This document shows, piece after piece, positions 28,134 through 53,496 of a DNA stretch of 64,000 nucleotides (position 1 is its first letter; every line of letters starts with the position of its first letter). Where the stretch lies: the NCBI GenBank assembly GCA_049323435.1, contig JBMOMX010000032.1, positions 18,555 to 82,554 on the forward strand, read 5' to 3'. This DNA comes from Pseudomonadota bacterium. Lineage in GTDB: Bacteria; Pseudomonadota; Alphaproteobacteria; UBA11222. The notes under the pieces are model-generated. The model was given only the letters and a program-made list of their open reading frames with translations. It made no database searches and was not told where the DNA came from. The translations under genes and the position numbers were made by a program.

Positions 28134-29549
28134 ATGATTGTCAAAGGCGCAAGTTTGGAACAATTATTGAAGCGCCCGGCCAGCGCCCTTCGCGCCGTGC
28201 TGTTTTATGGACCCAATGAGGGGCGTGTCCGGGAACATGCCCAGCGCGTGACCCAGGCGATTGTCGCGGATATACATGACCCGTTTCGCATTGCCAATCT
28301 GACCGGAGCCGCGCTTAAGGAAGATCCTGCACTTCTGGGTGATGAGGCGGCTGCGATTGCCATGACCGGCGGGCGCCGGGTAATACGCCTGAGCGGGGCC
28401 GGGGATGCCCTGCTTCCGGCATTTCTGAATTTTCTGCAAGACCCCAAAGGCGATTCGCTGATCGTCATGGAGGCGGGAGCACTGACCAAAACCTCCAAAT
28501 TGCGCAAAACTTTTGAGGACAGTCCGTTATGCGCAATCGCTGCCTGTTATGAAGACAGTGCAGCCGATCTGTCGGCAATGGTCACTGATCACTTGGCGCA
28601 GAACGGGCTGAGGATTACTTCAGATGCTAAGGACTATCTGCTGCAATGTTTGGGCGAAGACCGCATGGCCAGCCGACAGGAACTGGACAAGCTGGTTTTA
28701 TATAAGGGATTTTGGACACGCCAACGGAACAGTAGAGATATCAAAGATGTCATGGCAGGCGTCGGTAGCCAGGATACCGGCGATATCCCAGGTATCGGAG
28801 ATATACCTGACACAATAGATAGCCATGATGGCGCAGATATCCTGGCTATCGCGGATAGCAGAGGTATCACCGGTACCAATACTATCCTGGATTGCACGGA
28901 TATCCATGATGCCATAGCTATCGCAGATGTCTTAGAGACCCCTGACATCAGGGGTATAAAAGATACCGGCGGTATCATGGATGTCCATGACCGCTCTGAT
29001 AGCCATGATAGCTCTGATAGCCATGATGGCCATGATGGCTATGATGGCCATGATCTCCGGCATGGCATGGCGTCCAAGGATAATCTGGTGCGCTTGCAGG
29101 ATGTGCAGGCCTGTATTGGCGATGGTGCCGTTCACAGTCTCGATGAAATTTGTGACTGCCTGTGTCTGGGCGATCCTGAAGCGCTGGATGCGCATATTCA
29201 GCGCGCTTTTGCGGGCGGGGTTTCCCCTATCACTATCTTGCGTGCGCTCAGCACCCATCTGATGAAACTGCAACTGGTACTCGCGGCGCAGGCGAAGGGC
29301 AGTTCTGCCGATATGGCGCTGCGGGTGCTGCGGCCGCCTTTGCATTTCTCAAGAATCACGGCATTCCGCCGCATGCTGCCTATGTGGAATACGCAGTTGG
29401 CCGCACATGCGCTGGAACAGGTGCTGCGGACCGAGGCGGCCTGTAAAACCACCGGCGCACCGGATTTCAGCCTGTGCAGCCAGGCCCTGCTTCAGCTGGC
29501 GCATCTGCCGCGCCGCGCCCGGACGGCCCCCCCGGCCGGGCTGAGTTAA
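28134..29549 (+). CDS. holA: DNA polymerase III subunit delta, carrying a ~120-aa low-complexity D/H/I/G-rich insertion
   Basis: The N-terminal ~195 aa and the C-terminal ~150 aa align with HolA architecture (LRAVLFYGPNEG..., C-terminal helical domain). The protein is 471 aa against a typical length of about 340 aa. The excess is a repeat-encoded segment at roughly 28725..29085. Confidence 0.75.
   Translation: MIVKGASLEQLLKRPASALRAVLFYGPNEGRVREHAQRVTQAIVADIHDPFRIANLTGAALKEDPALLGDEAAAIAMTGGRRVIRLSGAGDALLPAFLNFLQDPKGDSLIVMEAGALTKTSKLRKTFEDSPLCAIAACYEDSAADLSAMVTDHLAQNGLRITSDAKDYLLQCLGEDRMASRQELDKLVLYKGFWTRQRNSRDIKDVMAGVGSQDTGDIPGIGDIPDTIDSHDGADILAIADSRGITGTNTILDCTDIHDAIAIADVLETPDIRGIKDTGGIMDVHDRSDSHDSSDSHDGHDGYDGHDLRHGMASKDNLVRLQDVQACIGDGAVHSLDEICDCLCLGDPEALDAHIQRAFAGGVSPITILRALSTHLMKLQLVLAAQAKGSSADMALRVLRPPLHFSRITAFRRMLPMWNTQLAAHALEQVLRTEAACKTTGAPDFSLCSQALLQLAHLPRRARTAPPAGLS
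28725..29085. repeat. degenerate in-frame coding minisatellite inside holA (gatatc / gatagccat / gatggccat units)
   Basis: AT-richer than the flanks. Repeated GATATC and (gat[ag]gc[ct]atgat) units encode ...DIPGIGDIPDTIDSHD...SDSHDSSDSHDGHDGYDGHD. All six frames stay open across it, the usual signature of a simple repeat. Confidence 0.7.
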
Positions 29550-30433
29550 AACTGGCCCTGAGCCGGATTGGTCAGCAATCGCTGATAGACATCCTCAAGC
29601 TGTTCCAACGATTTATATTCGATGGAAATGACACCTTCCAGAAAGCCCCGTGGCGAGATGGTCACCTTAAGCCCAAGCCCGTCCGCGATCTGTTTTTCCA
29701 GCGCCAGCAGATTGGGATCTTTTATCAGCGGGGGTTTTTTAGCGCCGGAGGGTTTGCGTCCTTTTGCCAGCGCCTCGGCATCGCGCACCGACAGCTTGCC
29801 TTTGACAATCTGTTGCGCCAGCGCTTCGGGATCAGACGCTGTGATCAGGGTGCGTGCATGTCCCGCGGAAAGGCGGTTATCTTCCAGCATCGCCTGGATG
29901 GATTCAGGCAGCGCCAGCAGCCGCAGCATATTGGCGACATGGCTGCGGCTTTTGCCCACCACGCGGCCGACATCCTCCTGCGAATGATCAAATTCATCTA
30001 TCAGCCGGGCATAGCCGCGTGCCTCATCCATCGGGTTCAGATCTGCCCTTTGAATATTTTCAATCAGCGCCAGTTCCAGGCTTTCGGCATCGGTCAGATC
30101 CTTGACCAGAATCGGCACCTCATGCAGACGCGCCAATTGTGCCGCCCGCCAGCGCCGTTCCCCGGCAACAATTTCATAATGCTCGGCCAGATCGGGTACC
30201 GGACGCACCAGAATAGGTTGCAAGACGCCCTTTTCCCGAATGGAATCGGTTAATTCCTTCAAAGCGGCATCGTCAAATTTTTTGCGCGGCTGAAAATGAT
30301 TGGGGCGCAGATTGCCCACCGGGATATGTTGCGGGGTCCGCGAAGGCATGACGCGCCCAAAAGGTGAGCGTTCCTCGCCCAGCAACGCGGACAGTCCACG
30401 CCCCAGCTTCTGTCTTCTGATTTCGTCACTCAT
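29546..30433 (-). CDS. parB: chromosome partitioning protein ParB
   Basis: 295 aa; ParB box GERRWRAA, an HTH region, and the N-terminal KLGRGLSALL. Confidence 0.9.
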   Translation of the reverse strand: MSDEIRRQKLGRGLSALLGEERSPFGRVMPSRTPQHIPVGNLRPNHFQPRKKFDDAALKELTDSIREKGVLQPILVRPVPDLAEHYEIVAGERRWRAAQLARLHEVPILVKDLTDAESLELALIENIQRADLNPMDEARGYARLIDEFDHSQEDVGRVVGKSRSHVANMLRLLALPESIQAMLEDNRLSAGHARTLITASDPEALAQQIVKGKLSVRDAEALAKGRKPSGAKKPPLIKDPNLLALEKQIADGLGLKVTISPRGFLEGVISIEYKSLEQLEDVYQRLLTNPAQGQF

Positions 30434-30461
30434 GATTTATTCCGCACCCTTGCCGCAGGGG

Positions 30462-31313
30462 TCAGGCGGCTTTTGCCTGGCGCTCCTGCCGGAGAATTTC
30501 TCCAGCAAGTTTTATATAGGCCCGGCTGCCTGCGCAATGCATATCATAGATCAGCACAGGCTTTCCGTAAGAGGGCGCTTCTGAAACCCGCACATTTCTG
30601 GGTATCACCGTGTCATAAACTTTTTTACCCAAAAATCCGCGCACATCCAGGGCCACCTGATCCGAAAGATTATTGCGGGAATCAAACATGGTCAGGACAA
30701 TGCCCTGAATTTCCAGCAGCGGATTCAAAGTGTCACGTACCATATCGACGGTGCGTAATAATTGGCTCAACCCTTCCAGCGCGAAAAACTCACATTGCAA
30801 CGGCACCAGAATCGAATCTGCCGCCGCCAGCGCATTGATCGTGAGCAAAGAAAGTGCGGGCGGGCAATCAATCAGAATATAGCTAAAGGGAAGCTGCCCT
30901 GCTTGCGCCGATTGTAACAGCATATCCCGCAGGCGAAAATTCCGCCGGGGCAGGTTTATCAATTCCAGCTCCGCACCGGAAAGATCGACCGAAGATGGCA
31001 GCACGCTGAGACCCGGAATGGAAGAAGCCTGCACCGCCTGCACCAGATCGGCCTCACCCATCAGCACTTCATAGATGGAACATTCCCGTGCCTGCTGGCT
31101 GACCCCCAAACCCGTGCTGGCATTACCTTGCGGGTCCAAATCAATCACCAGCACCCGCTCGCCAACCGCCGCCAATGCGGTGCCCAGATTAATTGCGGTT
31201 GTGGTTTTCCCCACCCCGCCTTTCTGATTGGCAACCGCAATCAGACGTGCGCCGCCAAGGTTTAATGTTTCACGTGAAACAGGCAAAGGTCGCGATACAG
31301 GAAAATCAGACAC
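30462..31313 (-). CDS. parA: chromosome partitioning ATPase ParA (Soj)
   Basis: Deviant Walker A KGGVGKTTTAINL. The annotated 5' end overlaps a parS site, so the true start may be downstream of 31313. Confidence 0.9.
   Translation of the reverse strand: MSDFPVSRPLPVSRETLNLGGARLIAVANQKGGVGKTTTAINLGTALAAVGERVLVIDLDPQGNASTGLGVSQQARECSIYEVLMGEADLVQAVQASSIPGLSVLPSSVDLSGAELELINLPRRNFRLRDMLLQSAQAGQLPFSYILIDCPPALSLLTINALAAADSILVPLQCEFFALEGLSQLLRTVDMVRDTLNPLLEIQGIVLTMFDSRNNLSDQVALDVRGFLGKKVYDTVIPRNVRVSEAPSYGKPVLIYDMHCAGSRAYIKLAGEILRQERQAKAA
31266..31281. promoter_or_regulatory. parS centromere site (perfect 16-bp palindrome TGTTTCACGTGAAACA)
   Basis: Exact match to the canonical parS palindrome, inside the annotated 5' end of the parA ORF. 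Confidence 0.8.
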
Positions 31314-31977
31314 GGGCTACCTCCGTGATTATCAGCACCTTGCCTGCCGAATGAGTTCGGCTTGGGTGCTGTATCACCGTCATTTTTCTATATTTTGCGG
31401 CCAATGTCAATTCATCATCTACATCTTGTCCTTTTAAAAGTAAATAAATCGTATCCGGCCCGGCAATCGGCGCAGTCAATTCCAGGATCCGATGCAGCGG
31501 GGCCAGCGCACGCGCCGTGATCAGCCGCGCCGGACCGCCCAATTGCGGCGGTTGTAGCTGCTCGATACGCTGCGCATGGACCTGTGCGGAAATTCCGGTG
31601 GCGCGAATCACTTCCTGCAAAAAAATTGCCTTGCGCTGATCGCTTTCGACCAGATGCAGGCTGGCGGCATTGCCCGTATCCTCCTGAAGCAGCGCAAGCA
31701 CCAGACCCGGAAATCCGGCGCCACTGCCAATGTCCAGCCAGGGTGCGCGCTGTTCAGGCAGAAGATGTAAAAGCTGGGCGCTGTCACGCAGGTGGCGCTG
31801 CCACAAATCCGGCAGCGTGCTGGCGCTGACCAGATTGATCCTGGGCTGCCATTTTTGCAGCAATGCGACAAAGTGATTTACCCGCGCCAGTGCCGCCGGG
31901 CCAATATTGAATTCCCGTTGAAATTCCACCGGCCCATAAGGGCCGCTGCTGGCATTATCGCAATTGCCGCCGTTCAC
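31306..31977 (-). CDS. rsmG: 16S rRNA (guanine527-N7)-methyltransferase RsmG (GidB)
   Basis: 223 aa; SAM-MTase motif [12 protein letters not shown]. Conserved position between mnmG and parA. Confidence 0.85.
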
Positions 31978-33860
31978 GCCGTTCTGACAGCGGGCTGCTT
32001 TTTCACATGCACCAGCAGCGTGGTCAGGGCCGCGGGCGTAATACCCTCAAGCCGCGCGGCCTGTCCCAAAGTCGCCGGGGCAGCTGCGCGCAGCTTCTGA
32101 CGCGCCTCTATCGACAGGCCGGAAATCTTGTCATAATCGAGATCGGCTGGCAAATGCAGCGCCTCGTCTTTTCGATAGGCAATGATATCGGCTTCCTGAC
32201 GCAGCAGATAGGTCGCATATTGCGCATCTGTTTGCACCTGCTCCGCAATATCGGGGGCAATTTCCGCCAGCTGCGGCCATATGACGCTCAACCGGCTAAT
32301 ATCAATATCGCGATAGGCCAACAGATCCCAGGCACTGCGGGTCAGGCCATCCTGATTGACCTGAAGCGCGTGATTCGCCGCCTGTGCCGATGTCAGGCGC
32401 AATGCCTGGGTCATTGCGCGGGCCTGGGTCAGCGCCTGCTGCTTGTACTCAAAATGTGCCGCCCGCTGCGACGAGACACAGCCCCAGGCCATTCCCAGAC
32501 CGGTCAAGCGCTGGTCCGCATTATCCGCCCGCAGGCTTAGCCGATATTCAGCGCGGGAGGTAAACATCCGATAGGGTTCACTGACCCCCTTGCTGGTCAG
32601 ATCGTCTATCATGACGCCAATATAGGCGGTGGCCCGGTCCAGCATCACCCCTGGCTGGCCACCGGCCAGACGGGCGGCATTGATACCAGCCATTAATCCT
32701 TGCGCGGCCGCCTCTTCATAGCCGGTGGTGCCATTGATCTGTCCGGCCAGAAACAGGCCGCCCACCGCAATGGTTTCCAGCGTAGGCCGCAATTCGCGCG
32801 GGTCCACGAAATCATATTCAATGGCATAGCCGGGACGGAAAAACACCGCGCGCTCCAGGCCGTTTATGGCGCGAACCATTTCCAGCTGCACCGATTCCGG
32901 CAGCGATGTGGAAATGCCGTTCGGGTAAATCCAGTCACTCTCCAGCCCCTCCGGCTCCAGAAAAATCTGATGACCCTCTTTGCCGGCGAAACGTACCACC
33001 TTATCCTCTATTGAGGGGCAATAGCGCGGCCCCGTGCCCGCAATCTGACCCGAATAGATCGGCGCACGGTGCAGATTGGCCCGGATGATCGCATGCATTG
33101 CCGGGCTGGTATGGGTAATATAGCAACTGACCTGAGGCGTGCGCGTCTCTCTGTTCATAAACGAAAACAGGCTTGGGGGCGAATCACCCTTCTGTTCTTC
33201 CAGTCCGTACCAGTCAATGGTTCTGCCATCCAGCCGCGGCGGGGTACCGGTCTTTAACCGGCCCATGCGCAATTTCAGCCCATAAAGCGTCTTCGCAAGC
33301 GCCACAGTCGGCGCCTCCCCAACCCGGCCGGCCGGCTGCGTAAACTCGCCCATATGGATAAGGCCGTTCAGAAAAGTTCCGGTGGTGAGTATCAGCGCCT
33401 TGCAGGCAATGTGCTGGCCTGATTCGGTGATCACCGCACGGATGCTGCTGTCAGCCATTTCTATATCCCCGGCCGGGGACGCGAAAATATCAAGGCCCGA
33501 TGTTTGCGCCAGCGCTGCCCGCATATGCTGCCGGTACAAAGCCCGGTCCGCCTGCGCGCGCGGTCCCTGTACGGCAGCGCCCTTGCGCCGGTTCAACAGG
33601 CGGAACTGGATGCCCGCTGCATCCGCAACCCGCCCCATCAGCCCGTCCAGCGCGTCAATTTCACGCACCAGATGCCCTTTGCCCAATCCGCCAATGGCCG
33701 GATTACAGGACATTTCCCCGAGCGTGGAAAAATTATGGGTCAGCAACAGCGTTTCCGCACCCATGCGCGCGGCTGCGGCTGCGGCTTCGCAACCGGCATG
33801 GCCGCCGCCAACCACCACCACATCATAGGTTTTTGCAGACAATTTTTCCAATTCAGGCAT
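31974..33860 (-). CDS. mnmG: tRNA uridine 5-carboxymethylaminomethyl modification enzyme MnmG (GidA)
   Basis: 628 aa; N-terminal FAD motif [16 protein letters not shown] and full-length MnmG architecture. Confidence 0.95.
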
Positions 33861-33983
33861 AGCGCACTCTATGCTGCTTTGCAGTCTTTGTCAAAAATTC
33901 ACCTAAATTATCAGATCGACCCTATTTTACAGATCTACCGGGATCGTCTCTGGCTATTCCATCTGATCCGAATAGGGTCTAGC

Positions 33984-33999
33984 TGTTTCACGTGAAACA
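33984..33999. promoter_or_regulatory. parS centromere site (perfect TGTTTCACGTGAAACA)
   Basis: Second exact copy, in the mnmG-mnmE intergenic region, abutting the mnmE stop codon. Confidence 0.8.
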
Positions 34000-35364
34000 T
34001 TATTTTCCGATGCAGAATTCCCCAAACAGCACATCCAGCATATCCTCGACACCGGCCCGGCCGGTAATCCGCCCCAGGGCCCGCATCGCCAGACGTACAT
34101 CCTCGGCAATCAGTTCTGCCGCTTTATCTTCCGATTGCAGCGCACGCAGCAAGCTTTGCTGACACTGGCTGAGTTCCCGCCTGTGCCGCTCCCGGGTCAG
34201 GCCGGGGGTCTCGCTGCCGCCCAGCCGGGCCGCCACCGCCTGCTGTAACCGCTGCAGCAGCCTGTCCACACCCGCGCCGGTGTGAAGGGATACAGGGATA
34301 TATTCACTTATTCCGGATTCGAAATCTTTTTCGGGATGCAGGTCGATCTTGTTGACCAGTGTCAGGGCAGATCCATCCTGCCAGACCTCGGTCGCCGCAT
34401 GTTTTTCAGGCCATGCGCCCGCATCATAGACCAGAAGTTTCAAATCGGCTGCCGCCGCCTGACGTCCGGCACGCGCAATGCCTTCGGCCTCGATATCATC
34501 CTCGGTAATGCGCAAACCGGCCGTATCCGCAATACTGACCAGATAACCGCCCAAATCCAGATTGACTTCTATCACATCGCGGGTGGTTCCCGCCTGGGGT
34601 GTCACAATGGCTACGTCCCTTTGGGCTAATGCATTGATTAAACTGGATTTTCCAACATTTGGCGCCCCCAGTATGGCGATCCGGAAGCCGCGCCGCAATA
34701 TTTCCCCGCGCTGGCCGTCGGCCAGATGCGCCGAAATATCCGTTGCTAATCCCTGTAACGCCGCTTGCAGTTGTTCATTCAAATCATCGGGCAGTTCTTC
34801 ATCGGAAAAATCTATCTGCGCTTCCAGAATCGCCAGCGCCTGCAACAGGCGGGCCCGCCATGATTCGTAGATTGCGCCCAGACCGCCCTCCATCTGGCGC
34901 AGCGCCTGACGCCGTTGCGCTTGTGTTTCCGCAGCCACCAGATCCGCCAGCCCTTCCACTTCGGTCAGGTCCAGCTTGCCATGATCAAAGGCCCGCCGGG
35001 TAAATTCTCCGGCCAAGGCCGGACGTGTGCCCGGCAGGCCGGAAAGGGTTCGCAGCATTTGCTCAATCACCGCGCGTCCGCCATGCAGATGAAATTCCGC
35101 AACAGATTCGCCGGTAAAACTATTTGGTGCAGGAAACCAAAGCAACAATCCCTGATCAATTGCATGACCATTTTCATCGTAAAAAGTGCGTTTTGACGCC
35201 ATACGTGCCTTGGGTAGCGGTCCTGCCAGCCTTGCTGCAATATCCCCCGCCAGCGGCCCGGAGAGACGCAGCACCGCTACTCCGGCGCGGCCCGGCGCCG
35301 TCGCCATGGCAAATATCGTATCGGGCTCAACCCCCATCCAGGCTGCCGCCTCAACCGGCGCCAC
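34000..35364 (-). CDS. mnmE: tRNA modification GTPase MnmE (TrmE)
   Basis: 454 aa; G-domain motifs (GAPNVGKSSL, DTAG) and the C-terminal ...FCIGK characteristic of MnmE. Confidence 0.9.
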   Translation of the reverse strand: MAPVEAAAWMGVEPDTIFAMATAPGRAGVAVLRLSGPLAGDIAARLAGPLPKARMASKRTFYDENGHAIDQGLLLWFPAPNSFTGESVAEFHLHGGRAVIEQMLRTLSGLPGTRPALAGEFTRRAFDHGKLDLTEVEGLADLVAAETQAQRRQALRQMEGGLGAIYESWRARLLQALAILEAQIDFSDEELPDDLNEQLQAALQGLATDISAHLADGQRGEILRRGFRIAILGAPNVGKSSLINALAQRDVAIVTPQAGTTRDVIEVNLDLGGYLVSIADTAGLRITEDDIEAEGIARAGRQAAAADLKLLVYDAGAWPEKHAATEVWQDGSALTLVNKIDLHPEKDFESGISEYIPVSLHTGAGVDRLLQRLQQAVAARLGGSETPGLTRERHRRELSQCQQSLLRALQSEDKAAELIAEDVRLAMRALGRITGRAGVEDMLDVLFGEFCIGK

Positions 35365-44541: not shown

Positions 44542-44877
44542 TTACTGGATAATTCCTGCTGATGTCAGCTCACCCCGGTTTTCCACACTCTCTTTTAATC
44601 TATTTATATTTATAAAAAAGGATGAAGTGGTAGTAGATGGCCTGAATAGAAGGGATAAAATTATATCCCGCTTTTGTTCGTTTTTCCGCTCCTGAAAGTA
44701 TCAGGCCTGCAGCCGGGATTCCGCTTATCACCCGTGATTCACAGACTGGGAATTTAGTTATTCCTGATCTATTATCCCCCATGTGAAAAGTCCGCAAAGT
44801 CAGGATGTTTTTCCGATGCGCCGCATTAGGCCTGTTTATTCACTGGATTCACCTGATTCACAGCCTATGCTGGTTCA
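44542..44877. other. putative chromosomal replication origin (oriC), hemE-type as in Caulobacter Cori
   Basis: A 336-bp divergent intergenic region between hemE (-) and the DUF299 gene (+). DnaA-box-like 9-mers: TTTTCCACA (one mismatch to TTATCCACA), TGATTCACA twice, TTATCCCCC, TTATCACCC, TTATTCACT. AT-rich tract ttttaatctatttatatttataaaaaag. Gene-strand orientation flips at this point. Confidence 0.6.
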
Positions 44878-45741
44878 ATGACTGAAATGACCGCACCTTC
44901 ATCGCCCCGGCTGGCTACCTATTTTCACCTGCATTTGGTTTCCGATGCGACCGGTGAAACCCTGAATTCCGTTACCCGGGCGGCTGTAGCGCAATTTGAC
45001 AGCGGTATTCCCATTGAACATACCTATGCGCTGGTACGCACTACCCGCCATCTTGACCGTGTTTTAAGCCAGATCGAGGATATGCCGGGAATTGTGATTT
45101 ATACGCTGGTAAATTACGATCTGCGCGACATGCTGGAACAACGCTGTGCGGAATTACAGCTACCCTGTCTTTCCGTGCTGGATCCCGTTGTGCAGATCAT
45201 CGGCACTTATCTTGGTTCGGAAATTTCGCACCGGCCTGGCGGACAGCATAGCCTGACGCCGGAATATTTTCAGCGCATTGAAGCGCTGCAATATACTATG
45301 GCGCATGATGATGGCCAATCGCTGCATGATCTGCATTCTGCGGATATCATTCTGCTCGGCGTAAGCCGCACCTCCAAAACGCCAACCTGCATCTATCTGG
45401 CCAATCGCGGATTAAAAGCTGCGAATATTCCTATAGTCCCGAATATTGCCTTGCCGGCCTCACTGCCTGATTTGAAAAAACCGCTGATCATCGGCCTGAC
45501 AACCAATCCCGACAGGTTGATTCAGGTGCGCCGCAACCGGCTTTTATCCCTGAACGAGAATGACGAGACCAGCTACACGGATCTGGATATAGTGATGGAG
45601 GAAGTGCGCTATGCAAGACGCCTTTTCGCCCAGTATGGCTGGCCGGTCATTGATGTGACCCGCCGCTCCATAGAGGAAACGGCTGCGGCCATTCTGAATC
45701 TGTTTTCCAGCCGCGCCAGCGGTAAGACCGGTGCATTATGA
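44878..45741 (+). CDS. PEP synthetase / pyruvate,phosphate dikinase regulatory protein (DUF299 kinase/pyrophosphorylase)
   Basis: 287 aa; YFHLHLVSDATGET N-terminus and a P-loop GVSRTSKT. This gene family flanks Cori in Caulobacter. Confidence 0.8.
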   Translation: MTEMTAPSSPRLATYFHLHLVSDATGETLNSVTRAAVAQFDSGIPIEHTYALVRTTRHLDRVLSQIEDMPGIVIYTLVNYDLRDMLEQRCAELQLPCLSVLDPVVQIIGTYLGSEISHRPGGQHSLTPEYFQRIEALQYTMAHDDGQSLHDLHSADIILLGVSRTSKTPTCIYLANRGLKAANIPIVPNIALPASLPDLKKPLIIGLTTNPDRLIQVRRNRLLSLNENDETSYTDLDIVMEEVRYARRLFAQYGWPVIDVTRRSIEETAAAILNLFSSRASGKTGAL

Positions 45742-46589
45742 GCATTCCTGTGCTGCGTGCCGGAATTGTCGGCTGGCCGGTCAGCCATTCACGTTCACCT
45801 CTTCTGCATGGTTATTGGCTACGCAAATATGCCATTTCCGGAACTTATGAGCGCATACCGATCGCGCCGGAGAATTTTGCCGTCAATTTCCGCGCCCTTG
45901 CCGGTCAGGGTTTTAGCGGCGTCAATGTCACCATACCGCACAAGCAAGCTGCCCTGGCATGTTGCGATGCGCTGGACGCCAATGCAAAAAGACTGGGTGC
46001 GGTGAATACAGTGCGGATCAAGGATGGGCAATTTTACGGTTCCAACACGGATGGTTTTGGATTTATGGAAAATCTGCGCCTGGGCGCGCCGGACTGGAAG
46101 CCGCAGGCCGGACCGGCAGTGATCATCGGGGCTGGCGGTGCCGCCCGTGCTGTTATTGCCGCGCTCTGCGATGCCGGGGTTCAACGCCTGTACCTGTTCA
46201 ACCGCACCCGTGCACGCGCGGACCGGCTGGCCGCTGATCTTGGCGGCCCGATCATCACAGCGGACTGGGCGGAATTACCCGGCACGCTGCCCGATTGCGC
46301 TTTGCTGGTGAATTGTTCAAGCCTCGGCATGGCGGGGCAACCGCCGCTGGAAATTTCACTGGAGAATCTCCATCCGCGCGCCACTGTCACCGATCTGGTC
46401 TATACGCCGTTGATCACAGCTTTGCTGCGCATGGCGGCGGCACGTGGAAACCCCGTCATTGACGGGCTTGGCATGCTGATACACCAGGCGCGGCCCGGTT
46501 TTGCCGCATGGTTTGGGCGCATGCCCGAGGCAGATGACACGCTGCGCAATCTGCTGCTGGCGGATATTGAAGGGGCAAAAGGACTATAG
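45738..46589 (+). CDS. aroE: shikimate dehydrogenase
   Basis: 283 aa; GWPVSHSRSPLLH...VTIPHK...NTDG motifs. The start overlaps the upstream stop (ATGA). Confidence 0.85.
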   Translation: MSIPVLRAGIVGWPVSHSRSPLLHGYWLRKYAISGTYERIPIAPENFAVNFRALAGQGFSGVNVTIPHKQAALACCDALDANAKRLGAVNTVRIKDGQFYGSNTDGFGFMENLRLGAPDWKPQAGPAVIIGAGGAARAVIAALCDAGVQRLYLFNRTRARADRLAADLGGPIITADWAELPGTLPDCALLVNCSSLGMAGQPPLEISLENLHPRATVTDLVYTPLITALLRMAAARGNPVIDGLGMLIHQARPGFAAWFGRMPEADDTLRNLLLADIEGAKGL

Positions 46590-46699
46590 TCCTAGAGCCC
46601 ATATATTAAATGCAGATAATATATGCATTAAAATCAATTGTTTATGCCCAAAAAATCAAATAGACATATTGCTGTTTATCTATTTTAGAAAGCTCCGCG

Positions 46700-48175
46700 A
46701 TGCAGCCTATTGGCACTCCAGAAATCAGGCAGCGAATTGAACGGGATAACCCGTGGTGGGCCAACGCCGATTTAGAAATTTTGGAAGCCAAATATCAGCG
46801 GCGTGTTTATTTCCCCTCATTCAAAGCATTAGCGCTGAACTTTGACGTGCGGCGCGCGGCGATTCTTCTTGGCCCCCGGCGCGTAGGCAAGACTGTAATT
46901 ATTAAGCAATTAATTCACGAAGCAATACAGGACGGTATCGATCCAAAACAAATTCTCTATGCAAGCATTGACGCTCCTATTTATTCTGGAATCTCTCTCG
47001 ACAAATTTATGGAATTCCTGCCAACCGCATCAAGAGACAAGCGCAGCGTGGTGGTTTTTGACGAAATCCAATATTTAAGGGACTGGGAAATCCACATGAA
47101 AGACCTGGTGGATAACTATCCGAGAACCAAGTTTATCGCATCTGGATCAGCCGCTGCCGCGCTTCGTTTAAAGAGTCGAGAGTCCGGAGCAGGGCGATTT
47201 TCCGAGTTCATGTTGCCGCCTCTTACATTCTATGAGTTCTTAAAATTTATTGGAGATGACGAAAAACTGATTTCAGAAAATGGTCCGGGTCAATATGAGG
47301 CAAAAGATATAGAAGCGCTTAATTCCAGATTTGTAGATTATCTGAATTTTGGGGGCTATCCAGAGGCCGTACTCAATGAAGAAGTCAGACGGAATGCAGA
47401 ACAATTTATCAGAAGCGACATCATTGACAAAGTATTGCTCAAAGATTTGCCAAGCCTTTACGGAATAAGTGATATCCAGGGCCTCAATAAATTATTTTCA
47501 TTCCTGGCGTATAACGCGGGCTCGGAAGCAAACCTCGAAAACATATCCAAAGAGTCCGGCCTGGCAAAGCCGACTATAAAAAAATATATCGAATATCTGG
47601 AAAACGCATTCCTGATCCTCAAGGTGTCGACAGTGGATGAAAACTGCCGGACTATGAAGCGAGAGCGCAATTTTAAGATTTACCTGAATAATCCATCAAT
47701 GAGAGCGGCGCTTTTTAAGCCTGTCGGAATTGAAGAGCAGGAAAAAATTGGTCACCTCGCGGAATCAGCTATTTTCTCGCAATGGCAACACGCGCCGGGA
47801 TTTCAGAGATTAAGATATGCGCGTTGGCGCAATGAGGGCGAGGTGGATATTGTATACCTTAGGCCTTCCGATGAAAAACCGTTGTGGATTGGCGAAATTC
47901 GATGGTCAGACAGAGTGAAAAATCAATTTGGCGAACAAACAAAGTCGCTATCAACATTGCTGAAAAATCATCCAACCATAAATGCGGCAATTCTTACATC
48001 GAAAACAGTCCATTCATTGAACCGCGAGCTTGAAGGCAGACACTTTGAGATTTGGCCAAGTTCACTTTATTGTTACAGCGTAGGAAGAAATATCACAGTA
48101 GCTCTTGACCAATTAGGGAGCGGGCGTTCCAGGAACCAGGCATATCAAATAAAGTATAAGGAAAATAAACCATGA
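46700..48175 (+). CDS. AAA+ ATPase of the AAA_14/DUF4143 (COG1373-like) family; likely horizontally acquired
   Basis: 491 aa; N-terminal NPWW motif, Walker A GPRRVGKT, Walker B VVFDEIQ. The gene and its upstream 110 bp are visibly AT-richer with different codon usage (AAA, ATT, TTA frequent). It sits between aroE and coaE, which are usually adjacent or separated only by maf. Confidence 0.7.
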
Positions 48176-48840
48176 TCATCGCCGGCCTGACAGGTTCAAT
48201 TGGCATGGGGAAATCGGAAACGGCGAAAATGTTCCGCGCTCTCGGCATTCCCGTCTATGATGCCGATGCCGCCGTGCACGCGATCTATGCGCCGGGCGGT
48301 TCGGCCGTGGCGCCGGTCGAGGCGGCCTTTCCCGGCGTGACCAATGCCAATGGTGTGGACCGCGACGCGCTGGCTAAACGGGTGCTGAACGATCCCGCTG
48401 CTTTGAAAAAACTGGAAGCTATCGTGCATCCGCTTGTCGGGCTGGAACAGCAGAAATTTCTCGAACAGGCGGCGGCTGAAAATCGTGAATTGATTGTGAT
48501 TGATGTGCCATTGCTGTATGAAACCGGGGGACAGAAGCGTGTGGACTGTGTGGTGCTGGTCAGCGCACCCTATGAATTGCAGCGCGAACGGGTTTTGGCG
48601 CGCCCCGGCATGAGCGAGGAAAAATTTCAGTCCATACTCGCCAAGCAGGTGCCGGACGCGCAAAAACGTCAGCTGGCTGATTATATTATCGATTCAAGCC
48701 AGGGCCTGGAATCGGCCATGGCGCAGGTCGCGGCACTGATCCCGCTGCTGAAAAAAGTGCCGGCCAGGGCCTGGGCTTCGCGCTTGCGCGAAACCGGAGA
48801 CACAGGGGCCATGCGCAAACAACAGACGGAAAAAGGATAA
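48172..48840 (+). CDS. coaE: dephospho-CoA kinase
   Basis: 222 aa; [17 protein letters not shown]-loop. Its start overlaps the ATPase stop (ATGA). Confidence 0.85.
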
Positions 48841-48843
48841 AAT

Positions 48844-49533
48844 TTGCGCGAAATCGTTCTGGATACGGAAACCACCGGGCTGGATCCGCGCACCGACCGC
48901 GTTATCGAAATCGGCTGTGTCGAGCTGTTCAATCATGTGCCCACAGGTATCACCTTCCATACCTATCTCAATCCCAAACGCGACATTGCCGCCGAAGCCT
49001 TCAATGTGCATGGCCTCAGCGCCGAATTTCTCAGCGACAAGCCGCTGTTTGGTGATATTGCCGTAGCGTTCAGCGAATTTATTGGGGATACCCAGCTGGT
49101 TATTCACAATGCGGCGTTTGATCTGGGTTTTCTGAACAGCGAGTTTGACCGGATCGGATTTGGCAAATTGCCGCCCGGTCGTGCGATAGATACGCTGCTG
49201 ATTGCGCGGCGCAAATTTCCGGGCGGGCAGAACAGTCTGGATGGCCTGTGCCGGCGGTTTGAAATTGATATTTCCGGGCGTGAGCTGCATGGCGCGCTGA
49301 AAGATTCGCATCTGCTGGCGGCGGTCTATCTGGAATTGATCGGCGGCGCACAAAGCGGGCTGGCGCTGGAAGGCGTGCCGGCGCAACTGGGCCGGGCTAT
49401 GGACCCTACCGGTTTGCGGGCGCCATCTTCCCCGCGTCCCGTGCCGCTGGCGCCGCGTTTGACGCAGGCCGAACGCGCCGCGCATGCGGAATTTGTGGCG
49501 GGCCTGGGCGGCGATCCGATCTGGAAACGGTGA
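48844..49533 (+). CDS. dnaQ: DNA polymerase III subunit epsilon (3'-5' exonuclease)
   Basis: 229 aa; Exo I motif VLDTETTGL, plus Exo II and Exo III (H..KDS.LLA) regions. TTG start. Confidence 0.85.
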   Translation: MREIVLDTETTGLDPRTDRVIEIGCVELFNHVPTGITFHTYLNPKRDIAAEAFNVHGLSAEFLSDKPLFGDIAVAFSEFIGDTQLVIHNAAFDLGFLNSEFDRIGFGKLPPGRAIDTLLIARRKFPGGQNSLDGLCRRFEIDISGRELHGALKDSHLLAAVYLELIGGAQSGLALEGVPAQLGRAMDPTGLRAPSSPRPVPLAPRLTQAERAAHAEFVAGLGGDPIWKR

Positions 49534-52152: not shown

Positions 52153-52354
52153 AATAATGACCAACGCTATTTTAATAAAGTCTCGCTTATTAAAATAGTG
52201 ATCATTGTTATTTAAAATTATATGCCTTTACTAAAATAATGTCCTGGGCTATTTTAGTAGACGGTGAAGATACACGTTATAAGTGAATCAATCGCTATAT
52301 TCACTACCATGCATTGGATCTGGCTGGTCCGGTCGATACACTGAAAGCTGATCG

Positions 52355-53488
52355 ATGAAATTTGAGTCATTCAGCGCTGGCGAATGGAAAAAGCAATATC
52401 AGTATAAAAGCTTTTCTCCTGCATTGATAAATCATGAATGGGGCTGGGATGACCCGCGCATTAATGTTTTGCTTGAACAGGCAATGCGGGCGCTTGGTGA
52501 ATTGAACGCTTTTTCTTTTATTGTCCCAAATGTAGACATTTTTATACAAATGCATATCGCCAAAGAGGCACACACTTCAAATCGCATTGAAGGGACGAAA
52601 ACAGCCTTTGAAACGGAACTGATGCCGGAAGAAGCGATACCACCAGAAAATCGTGACGATTGGCATGAGGTGCAGAATTATATGGCCGCCATGAATATGG
52701 CGGTTCAGGAATTACAGCGCCTGCCGGTCTCAACCCGGTTATTGTGTCAAACACATGCAATTGTGATGCAGGGGGTCAGAGGTCAACATAAAACTCCCGG
52801 AGAACTACGCCGGGCGCAAAACTGGATCGGTGGTTCAGGGCCAATGGATGCAGCCTTTGTGCCGCCGCATCCAGATGAGGTATCCGGTCTGATGGGCGAT
52901 CTGGAAAAATTTCTGCATAATGAGGAAATAATGGTGCCCGATCTGGTGCGGGCCGCCATTGCGCATTATCAGTTCGAGACTATCCACCCCTTTAATGACG
53001 GTAATGGTCGGGTCGGGCGGCTGTTGATTACACTTTATCTCGTGAGCAAGGGGATTCTGCAAAAGCCCTCGCTTTATCTTTCGGATTTTTTTGAACGCAA
53101 CCGGTCTTCCTATATTGACGCTCTGATGCGGGTGCGCACTGCAAACGATATCGGACATTGGGTGCGATTTTTCCTTGCCGGGGTTTTGGAAATTTCAAAA
53201 AAAGGACGCGACACGTTCAAGGCTATTCAGGTGTTACGCGAAGAAGCGGAGAATCAATGTTTGAGCCTTGGAAGGCGGGCGCCAATGGCGAAGCGTGCGT
53301 TGACCTTGCTTTACCGCCGTGTTGTTGTATCGGCCAAAGATATAGAAATAGAGCTTGGCGTAACCAGCGCGACAGCAAACGCAATCATTCGCGATTTTAT
53401 AAAAATGCAGATATTACGCGAAACTACTGGAAAGAGCCGGCGCCGGTTATATGTGTTTGACCGGTATTTACAGCTGTTCATGGACTGA
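52355..53488 (+). CDS. Fic family protein, class II (intramolecular inhibitory helix); likely horizontally acquired
   Basis: 377 aa; Fic motif HPFNDGNGRVGR. An inhibitory S-x3-E-G motif (SNRIEG) lies N-terminal to it. There is a C-terminal winged-helix-like tail. The gene and its 200-bp upstream region are strongly AT-rich. Confidence 0.85.
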   Translation: MKFESFSAGEWKKQYQYKSFSPALINHEWGWDDPRINVLLEQAMRALGELNAFSFIVPNVDIFIQMHIAKEAHTSNRIEGTKTAFETELMPEEAIPPENRDDWHEVQNYMAAMNMAVQELQRLPVSTRLLCQTHAIVMQGVRGQHKTPGELRRAQNWIGGSGPMDAAFVPPHPDEVSGLMGDLEKFLHNEEIMVPDLVRAAIAHYQFETIHPFNDGNGRVGRLLITLYLVSKGILQKPSLYLSDFFERNRSSYIDALMRVRTANDIGHWVRFFLAGVLEISKKGRDTFKAIQVLREEAENQCLSLGRRAPMAKRALTLLYRRVVVSAKDIEIELGVTSATANAIIRDFIKMQILRETTGKSRRRLYVFDRYLQLFMD

Positions 53489-53496
53489 AATAAATA

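Follow-up and report, generated by a model that had tools for sequence, protein, structure and literature searches.

A horizontally acquired single-gene cassette with a candidate ATPase-nuclease of the PDC-S01 family between aroE and coaE of an alphaproteobacterium

The stretch of DNA analyzed here, referred to below as the window, comprises 64,000 nucleotides (64 kb) of contig JBMOMX010000032.1 (assembly GCA_049323435.1) from an alphaproteobacterium of the UBA11222 lineage; all positions are those of the window. Between the host genes aroE and coaE it carries 1574 bp of inserted DNA (46584–48157, + strand) with a single gene, an open reading frame (ORF) of 491 aa (46700–48175, +) for an ATPase-nuclease of the PDC-S01/COG1373 family, as identified from the ORF list, Pfam, and PADLOC. 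The extent of the insert is defined by comparison with empty sites; it is made up of junction filler, a leader, this ORF, and, at the 3′ end, some 40 nt without homology. The upstream host gene is aroE, encoding shikimate dehydrogenase (45738–46589, +; Pfam and junction comparison), and the downstream host genes are coaE and dnaQ (48172–49533, +; Pfam), which are now parted from aroE.

To map the insert, the empty aroE|coaE sites of the relatives L016, L017, L018, L020, L021, and L022 were used as references. In relatives from four lineages whose AroE is 78–87% identical to that of the window, the ATG of coaE follows the aroE stop codon by 3–12 nt without the ATPase gene, and the neighbourhood is kept (rho, hemH, hemE, the PPDK-regulator gene, aroE, coaE, dnaQ, secB, tim44, and mltA). 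These empty sites identify the ATPase gene as a foreign single-gene insertion. They also demonstrate directly, in L016–L022, the interruption of the aroE-coaE-dnaQ synteny that a preliminary description of the window had proposed; the maf gene that it considered as a possible member of the locus does not occur there in this lineage, the order being PPDK-regulator, aroE, coaE, and dnaQ.

The ends of the cassette could be mapped to the base. In the junction alignment, the pentanucleotide AAGGA is present in one copy in the empty sites (L018 ...GCGAAAGGAAATTAAACCATG) and in two copies in the window, one per junction. The left copy (46579–46583, +) is the end of the ancestral aroE coding sequence, and the right copy (48158–48162, +) is the ancestral Shine-Dalgarno sequence of coaE, 9 nt upstream of its ATG. 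The aligned empty sites read ...GCGAAAGGAAATTAAACCATGATC in L018 and ...GGGATATAAGGAAAATAAACCATGATC in L016, and the window reads ...GGGGCAAAAGGA|CTATAGTCCTAG... at the left and ...CAAATAAAGTAT|AAGGAAAATAAACCATGATC at the right junction; the latter, ...AAAGTAT|AAGGAAAATAAACCATGATC, agrees with the empty site of L016, ...TATAAGGAAAATAAACCATGATC. The last codon of aroE and its stop codon (CTA TAG, with TAG at 46587–46589) now come from the insert, and coaE, which starts at 48172, has retained its ancestral AAGGA. At the level of aligned DNA, this comparison shows that the gene was acquired horizontally.

No recombinase is encoded in the insert according to the ORF list and Pfam, no terminal inverted repeats or long direct repeats bounding the insert were found, no tRNA gene lies in the 64-kb window, and there is no terminator-like site within 46400–48400. 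With solely the 5-bp AAGGA repeat present and with ends that differ between copies, the insert does not have the make-up of an integrative island, a prophage, an insertion sequence, or a transposon. The exact 491-aa protein is found in about 40 metagenome assembly blocks, every time between aroE and coaE. The insertion did hit an essential operon near the origin, which is unremarkable in mechanistic terms, and it was presumably tolerated because the Shine-Dalgarno sequence of coaE is preserved and the insert contains no terminator.

The composition of the insert differs from that of the host. Its GC content is 0.433, compared with 0.57 for the whole window, and that of the 110-bp leader is 0.30. 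For the ATPase gene the GC content is 0.441 overall and 0.445 at third codon positions, where nine neighbouring host genes have 0.51–0.69; its codon adaptation index calculated from the codon usage of the neighbours is 0.49, the lowest in the region (neighbours 0.60–0.73). These values bear out the initial impression of an AT-rich gene and 110-bp upstream region with non-native codon usage.

The encoded protein contains the motif NPWW, the Walker A sequence GPRRVGKT, and the Walker B sequence VVFDEIQ, all as first described. Pfam assigns residues 51–181 to AAA_14 (E = 3e-29, 102 bits, cut-off 27) and residues 248–390 to DUF4143 (E = 3e-19, 69.6 bits, cut-off 28.1). Seven hidden Markov models (HMMs) of the PADLOC phage-defence candidate PDC-S01 match the protein, the best with E = 6.6e-54 over residues 48–390, followed by 5.1e-48, 2.6e-35, and weaker values; by these matches, and by the lack of a recurrent neighbour in 83 loci of the family, the gene is a member of PDC-S01 standing alone. 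The assignment to a poorly characterized, defence-associated ATPase family was thus correct, and the novelty implied along with it was overstated, since a catalogue entry for the family exists. The protein has no specific model in NCBIfam, and a sequence search of the PDB with the family profile gave nothing meaningful, that is, no solved structure related by sequence.

An AlphaFold model built on 119 homologs (pLDDT, the local distance difference test as predicted, 88.5; predicted template-modelling score 0.88) consists of an AAA+ domain, a lid, a winged helix, and a restriction-endonuclease-like domain. The AAA_14 P-loop domain (aa 51–181; 46850–47242, +), with Walker A at G58–T65 and Walker B at D121–E122, is supported by Pfam, homolog invariance, and fold matches, and R166, which is invariant, may serve as an arginine finger. 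In a Foldseek search of the PDB with the whole chain, the best matches were archaeal Orc1/Cdc6 on origin DNA, RFC, DnaA, CED-4/Apaf-1, and the STAND protein Avs5, with a probability of 1.0 and a template-modelling score (TM) of about 0.3. On the modelled structure, these matches indicate that the N-terminal module is an initiator- or clamp-loader-like AAA+ ATPase with lid and winged helix. The winged helix-turn-helix (HTH) is predicted at aa ~259–330 (47474–47689, +), where the model has the order helix-strand-helix-helix-hairpin and weak HTH hits occur; the whole-chain fold matches include Orc1/Cdc6 initiators, which carry a winged helix.

The C-terminal domain (aa ~345–470; 47732–48109, +) is predicted to be restriction-endonuclease-like, of the PD-(D/E)XK type. 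In the models, residues 345–470 follow the alpha-beta-beta-beta-alpha-beta order of the restriction-endonuclease fold, and nearly all hits of this domain with a low root-mean-square deviation have that fold (Can2, DdmD, the Avs4 nuclease domain, BpuSI, BspD6I, NucS, MUS81, and 3ijm). DUF4143 has been placed in the PD-(D/E)XK superfamily (Steczkiewicz et al. 2012, PMC3424549). Walker A and B, R166, and the acidic residues E355, D383, and E399 are invariant in the 119 homologs. At position 401, that of the motif lysine, the window has R, and the 119 homologs have K in 87 cases, S in 25, R in 5, and G and A in 1 each. R401 was considered as a sign of nuclease decay and rejected, since 27% of intact close homologs lack K there. 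A nuclease-type domain and a winged helix, proposed at the outset as features to look for in the C-terminal part, are both predicted by the model.

Close homologs, with a length of about 473 aa, terminate in ...GRNITxxLDKAGQ*, and the DNA homology among cassettes of different hosts ends at that LDKAGQ stop codon. The window reads AGC where the homologs have the stop, and the ORF goes on for about 18 codons, through some 40 nt of non-homologous sequence and into the former aroE/coaE junction, so that the last five codons (K-E-N-K-P) and the stop are host DNA. The resulting read-through tail (aa 474–491; 48119–48172, +) is predicted to be disordered, with pLDDT below 50 at residues 475–491. A strain variant of the protein (P0001, 481 aa, 99% identical) ends in ...GRSRNQA, ten residues before the window copy, and two residues of its tail differ; a tail that is shorter and divergent in this variant indicates that the read-through sequence is polymorphic and unconstrained. 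The stop codon of the ORF overlaps the start of coaE as ATGA (48172), as had been noted, because the native stop is lost and the ORF reads into the old junction. Of the translational coupling to coaE that had been proposed on this ground, the overlap itself is real, but it is an accident of the lost stop codon, not a design feature.

A family search gave more than 8000 matching proteins, 120 of which are 63–99% identical; in a contig scan with the single protein, the only locus was a partial one, an 82%-identical fragment in a metagenome-assembled genome (MAG) of Gammaproteobacteria. Homologs at 47–85% identity stand alone in unrelated neighbourhoods, for example, beside HAD/TctC genes, leucine-catabolism genes, hemX/hemY, or a PIN/RHH pair. 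When all flanking ORFs of 83 loci were clustered, no recurrent neighbour or partner gene was obtained, and neither a recombinase nor terminal repeats recurred with the homologs; an apparent neighbour cluster of 22 loci proved to be an artefact of antisense ORFs within GC-rich copies of the gene. Since no partner gene travels with the single ORF, either in the insert or in the 83 loci, the suggestion of an addiction function, i.e., a toxin-antitoxin module, is unsupported.

The low GC content is a property of the family as well. Among the 66 loci with enough flanking sequence (from L011, L012, and L023–L102), the gene is below its flanks in 62, the mean difference being −9.6 points, and in the closest clade genes of GC 0.41–0.50 reside in hosts of GC 0.55–0.68. 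Such persistence suggests that the gene turns over rapidly or that AT-richness is selected for, for example, by xenogeneic silencing. Family members are also found on 283 plasmids, the best match being 50% identical on small Acinetobacter plasmids, and among phage records there are 16 distant matches (22–29% identity). The PDC-S01 gene has the profile of a frequently transferred accessory gene.

What moves was delimited by aligning the upstream regions of L012, L015, L024, L104–L107, and other loci. About 110 bp upstream and the ORF form the stretch conserved between cassettes of different hosts, and the cassette ends are not conserved between copies; judged by these alignments, the mobile unit is the ORF with its AT-rich leader of ~110 bp, and the gene moves as a single-gene unit. 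Two of the loci, L015 (5989–6756) and L106 (2679–4100), have their left host flank in common, one of them being from a Gammaproteobacteria MAG. L106 has about 95 bp more before the cassette, which shows the junction sequence beside it to be labile.

The leader that travels with the gene (46599–46699, +; conserved with cassettes in unrelated hosts) contains an operator-like inverted repeat (46658–46685, unstranded) with 8-bp arms, TAGACATA (46661–46668) and TTTATCTA (46675–46682), and a 6-bp spacer. The repeat, TAGACATA-TTGCTG-TTTATCTA (46661–46682, 22 bp, with AAA/TTT at its sides), has its end 17 nt upstream of the ATG, directly ahead of the ribosome-binding site, and is the one occurrence of ATAGA-N12-16-TCTAT in 64 kb. 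In some homologs a TTGACA-like −35 box lies directly upstream of the repeat; this box is degenerate in the window, and a simple consensus scan of the + strand gave no strong sigma-70 promoter. Within 80 bp upstream of the gene, 32 of 74 loci have an inverted repeat whose arms match at 9 or more positions, compared with 3 of 74 in-gene controls (Wilcoxon p = 6e-8), and many loci among L024–L103 have two copies, often about 40 bp apart (e.g., L083, L060, L059, and L080).

The half-sites of these repeats are clade-specific yet symmetric, and they vary with the start of the recognition helix of the winged helix. A helix beginning KPTIKKY goes with TAGAGAAA-N6-TTTCTCTA, KNTIK(R/K)Y with TAAGATCA...TGATCTTA or TAGAGTCA...TGACTCTA, and KNTI(S/T)(R/K)Y with TAGCATCA...TGATACTA. 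An RNA hairpin or riboregulator in the leader was rejected: the arms are unpaired in the minimum-free-energy structure (z −1.2). As no other gene travels with the repeat, self-binding and autoregulation are the simplest reading, and we infer from this pattern that the winged helix of the protein itself probably binds the repeat as a dimer and autoregulates the gene.

A different palindrome lies across the left junction. It is imperfect over its full extent, GGGCaaaAGGACTA|TAGTCCTagaGCCC (46573–46600, unstranded), its left half being host flank and its right half the first ~17 nt of the insert, and it has a perfect 14-bp core, AGGACTATAGTCCT (46580–46593), over the aroE stop, just as the preliminary description had it. 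Since the window contains 9 perfect 14-bp palindromes and about 3.75 are expected from shuffles, the existence of this one is unremarkable by itself; its placement exactly on the junction is notable. The RNA fold of the region has z = −2.9. Homologous cassettes in other hosts lack the palindrome at their left ends, which rules it out as a component of the mobile unit and places it outside that unit; its right half lies upstream of where the homology with other cassettes starts. It is a probable scar of the insertion event, formed, e.g., by fold-back or template-switch synthesis joined at the AGGA microhomology, and it could alternatively be a fortuitous 3′ stem-loop of aroE.

The wider setting of the locus is origin-proximal, as originally stated. 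The cluster mnmE-mnmG-rsmG-parA-parB (29546–35364, − strand, confirmed by Pfam) lies 13–15 kb upstream together with two perfect copies of TGTTTCACGTGAAACA, which we take to be the canonical parS centromere consensus; they flank mnmG-rsmG at 31266–31281 and 33984–33999 (0 expected by chance), and their position in this cluster places the window near the origin. A divergent intergenic region of 336 bp between hemE and the PPDK-regulator gene (44542–44877, GC ~0.42) lies next to a local sign change of the GC skew near 45–46 kb. In alphaproteobacteria, origins are adjacent to hemE, and this intergenic region may be regarded as a candidate oriC. It has a single near-consensus DnaA box (44579); the window as a whole shows no enrichment of such boxes, so that oriC could not be placed, and the GC skew at the scale of the window is ambiguous.

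A second AT-rich single-gene island lies at 52153–53496 (GC ~0.36–0.48), between mltA and a CCG-domain (lutA-like) gene. Its ORF (52355–53488) encodes a Fic protein (PADLOC SoFic, E = 2e-113) with a weak C-terminal HTH_13 hit. The island is present at the same site in L020 (Fic 80% and MltA 74% identical); L018 and L022 lack it, with mltA directly adjoining the gene that follows. The Fic leader has a perfect, operator-like inverted repeat with 12-bp arms, CTATTTTAATAA-N8-TTATTAAAATAG (52167–52178 and 52187–52198).

Overall, the reading that we favour, with confidence slightly better than even, is that the locus is a horizontally acquired, self-contained single-gene cassette of ~1.57 kb that encodes an autoregulated ATPase-nuclease candidate acting against invading DNA. 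According to this model, illegitimate recombination at the 5-bp AAGGA would have placed the cassette exactly in the interval from the aroE stop to the ribosome-binding site of coaE. Its product is an AAA+ ATPase of the Orc1/Cdc6-like kind that has a lid and a winged helix and, at the C terminus, a domain of predicted restriction-endonuclease fold in which the acidic triad is intact; the winged helix, bound as a dimer to the 22-bp inverted repeat upstream of the start codon, would autoregulate the gene. From this architecture and the membership in a defence-candidate family, the protein would most likely act as an ATP-gated DNA-binding nuclease against phage or plasmid DNA. A defence role is plausible by analogy with the candidate family to which the protein belongs.

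Several observations weigh against this model or parts of it. The 5-bp AAGGA is too short to tell a target-site duplication, an att-like core, and microhomology apart. The contexts of the homologs are mostly housekeeping genes and not classical defence islands. Common ancestry confounds the correlation of operator with recognition helix. As to the nuclease, the isolated C-terminal domain was modelled with pLDDT 77 and gave weak Foldseek matches (best E 0.04, none reaching 0.001), and the 27% of close homologs without K at position 401 mean that catalysis may be atypical or absent. Finally, searches of the literature on DUF4143, AAA_14, COG1373, DUF234, and related names turned up no experimental demonstration of defence, DNA cleavage, or autoregulation for any member.

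An unlikely alternative is a selfish gene-sized element that persists and spreads through nuclease-driven insertion, homing, or post-segregational killing, brings no benefit to the host, and uses the repeat as a recognition or recombination site. Movement of gene and leader without a recombinase, a tRNA site, or terminal repeats would agree with such an element, as would the AT-richness kept in nearly all hosts, the 5-bp repeat and palindromic scar at the junction, and the clade-specific palindrome carried by the cassette. However, the homology of the copies stops at the leader and the stop codon, their ends are not conserved, the palindrome is internal, beside the ribosome-binding site, rather than terminal, and there is no antitoxin-like partner. 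Nor is any strand-transfer chemistry known for a PD-(D/E)XK nuclease with an AAA+ domain.

A bolder variant of the favoured model, which we regard as a long shot, combines sensor, regulator, and effector in one polypeptide, with the palindrome not just an operator but a site of "self" recognition or of assembly by which the nuclease is licensed or restrained, or even a means of movement without a recombinase. If true, PDC-S01 proteins would be fully autonomous one-gene systems whose Orc1/Cdc6-like ATPase reads, through its winged helix, a clade-specific 22-bp palindrome in their own leader.

It is equally doubtful that the protein has a cellular role apart from defence, as an ATP-dependent DNA-binding regulator or a chromosome or replication factor of the Orc1/Cdc6 or DnaA kind recruited next to the origin. 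The closest structural matches are indeed initiators (Orc1/Cdc6, DnaA) and clamp loaders, the protein combines a winged helix with a cognate palindrome, the locus is 13–15 kb from parS and parAB, and one homolog is annotated as an ArsR-family regulator. Yet the gene is missing at this site in the closest relatives, its homologs occupy unrelated positions in other genomes, its composition is foreign, and a pure regulator would not need the conserved acidic triad of a nuclease domain. The least probable reading, and an improbable one, is a neutral or decaying passenger, a recent functionless hitch-hiker tolerated as the expression of coaE-dnaQ is undisturbed: the lost native stop with its disordered 18-aa tail, the R where K is usual, the −35 box degenerate relative to homologs, and the unameliorated composition would fit it, but the 491-codon ORF is intact with every invariant family residue and the operator retained, its sequence is identical in ~40 independent assemblies, and intact homologs commonly have R, S, G, or A at position 401.

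Of the known systems to which the cassette can be compared, PDC-S01 is the closest. The PDC systems are 145 candidates found by "guilt by embedding" and released as explicitly untested (bioRxiv 10.1101/2024.01.29.577857), and a 2026 survey states that validation is still pending for most of them. The published description of PDC-S01 is that of an ATPase with a fused PD-(D/E)XK domain; in published surveys it ranks fourth in frequency among the candidate defences of prokaryotes, and no other single locus is as frequent in rumen MAGs. The window protein is like it in the HMM matches, in both Pfam domains, in the single-gene organization, and in the ATPase-PD-(D/E)XK description; there is no structural difference, and what sets the window copy apart is its read-through C-terminal tail and the R at the lysine position. 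As PDC-S01 is without a demonstrated function, membership says little about mechanism.

For this family the locus offers a very clear natural case: the cassette is minimal (1.57 kb), its ends are mapped, sister lineages provide the empty site as a control, and accessory genes are absent. It provides new handles on PDC-S01, namely, a moving unit that consists of ORF and leader and a palindrome whose co-variation with the recognition helix predicts that the protein binds it and autoregulates its gene. The native leader, the defined operator, and the defined catalytic residues K64, D383, and E399 make PDC-S01 easier to clone and test. In other respects, the biology of the window is ordinary: a laterally acquired accessory gene is tolerated in an essential operon.

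Archaeal Orc1/Cdc6 proteins (PDB 2qby and 2v1u) are the best structural matches over the first ~330 residues, which cover the AAA+ domain, the lid, and the winged helix, although the identity is only 12–14%, TM is ~0.3 over the whole chain, and Orc1/Cdc6 has no nuclease domain. The orc1/cdc6 genes adjoin their origin recognition boxes, and the window gene likewise adjoins a cognate inverted repeat. Despite this similar architecture, a gene that is absent in close relatives, is mobile, and has an extra nuclease domain does not encode a chromosomal initiator; an initiator of the Orc1/Cdc6 type was rejected for a gene that is dispensable and mobile.

The Avs/STAND nuclease effectors, DdmD, Can2, and McrBC-type systems likewise couple an NTPase module to an effector of restriction-endonuclease fold. 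Among the C-terminal matches of best geometry, with TM up to 0.48 but scores too weak to establish homology, are the Avs4 nuclease domain, DdmD, and Can2, and Avs5 and CED-4/Apaf-1 are among the matches of the ATPase part. Unlike these ATPase-coupled nucleases, the window protein is without a large sensor (TPR or similar), a helicase, a CARF domain, or a partner subunit.

Winged-helix regulators of the BrxR/CapW type act at a palindromic operator and control defence or toxin cassettes. The cassette in the window resembles them in having a putative palindromic operator between promoter and ribosome-binding site and a winged helix encoded on the cassette, whereas its putative regulator is a domain of the effector itself, not the product of a separate gene.

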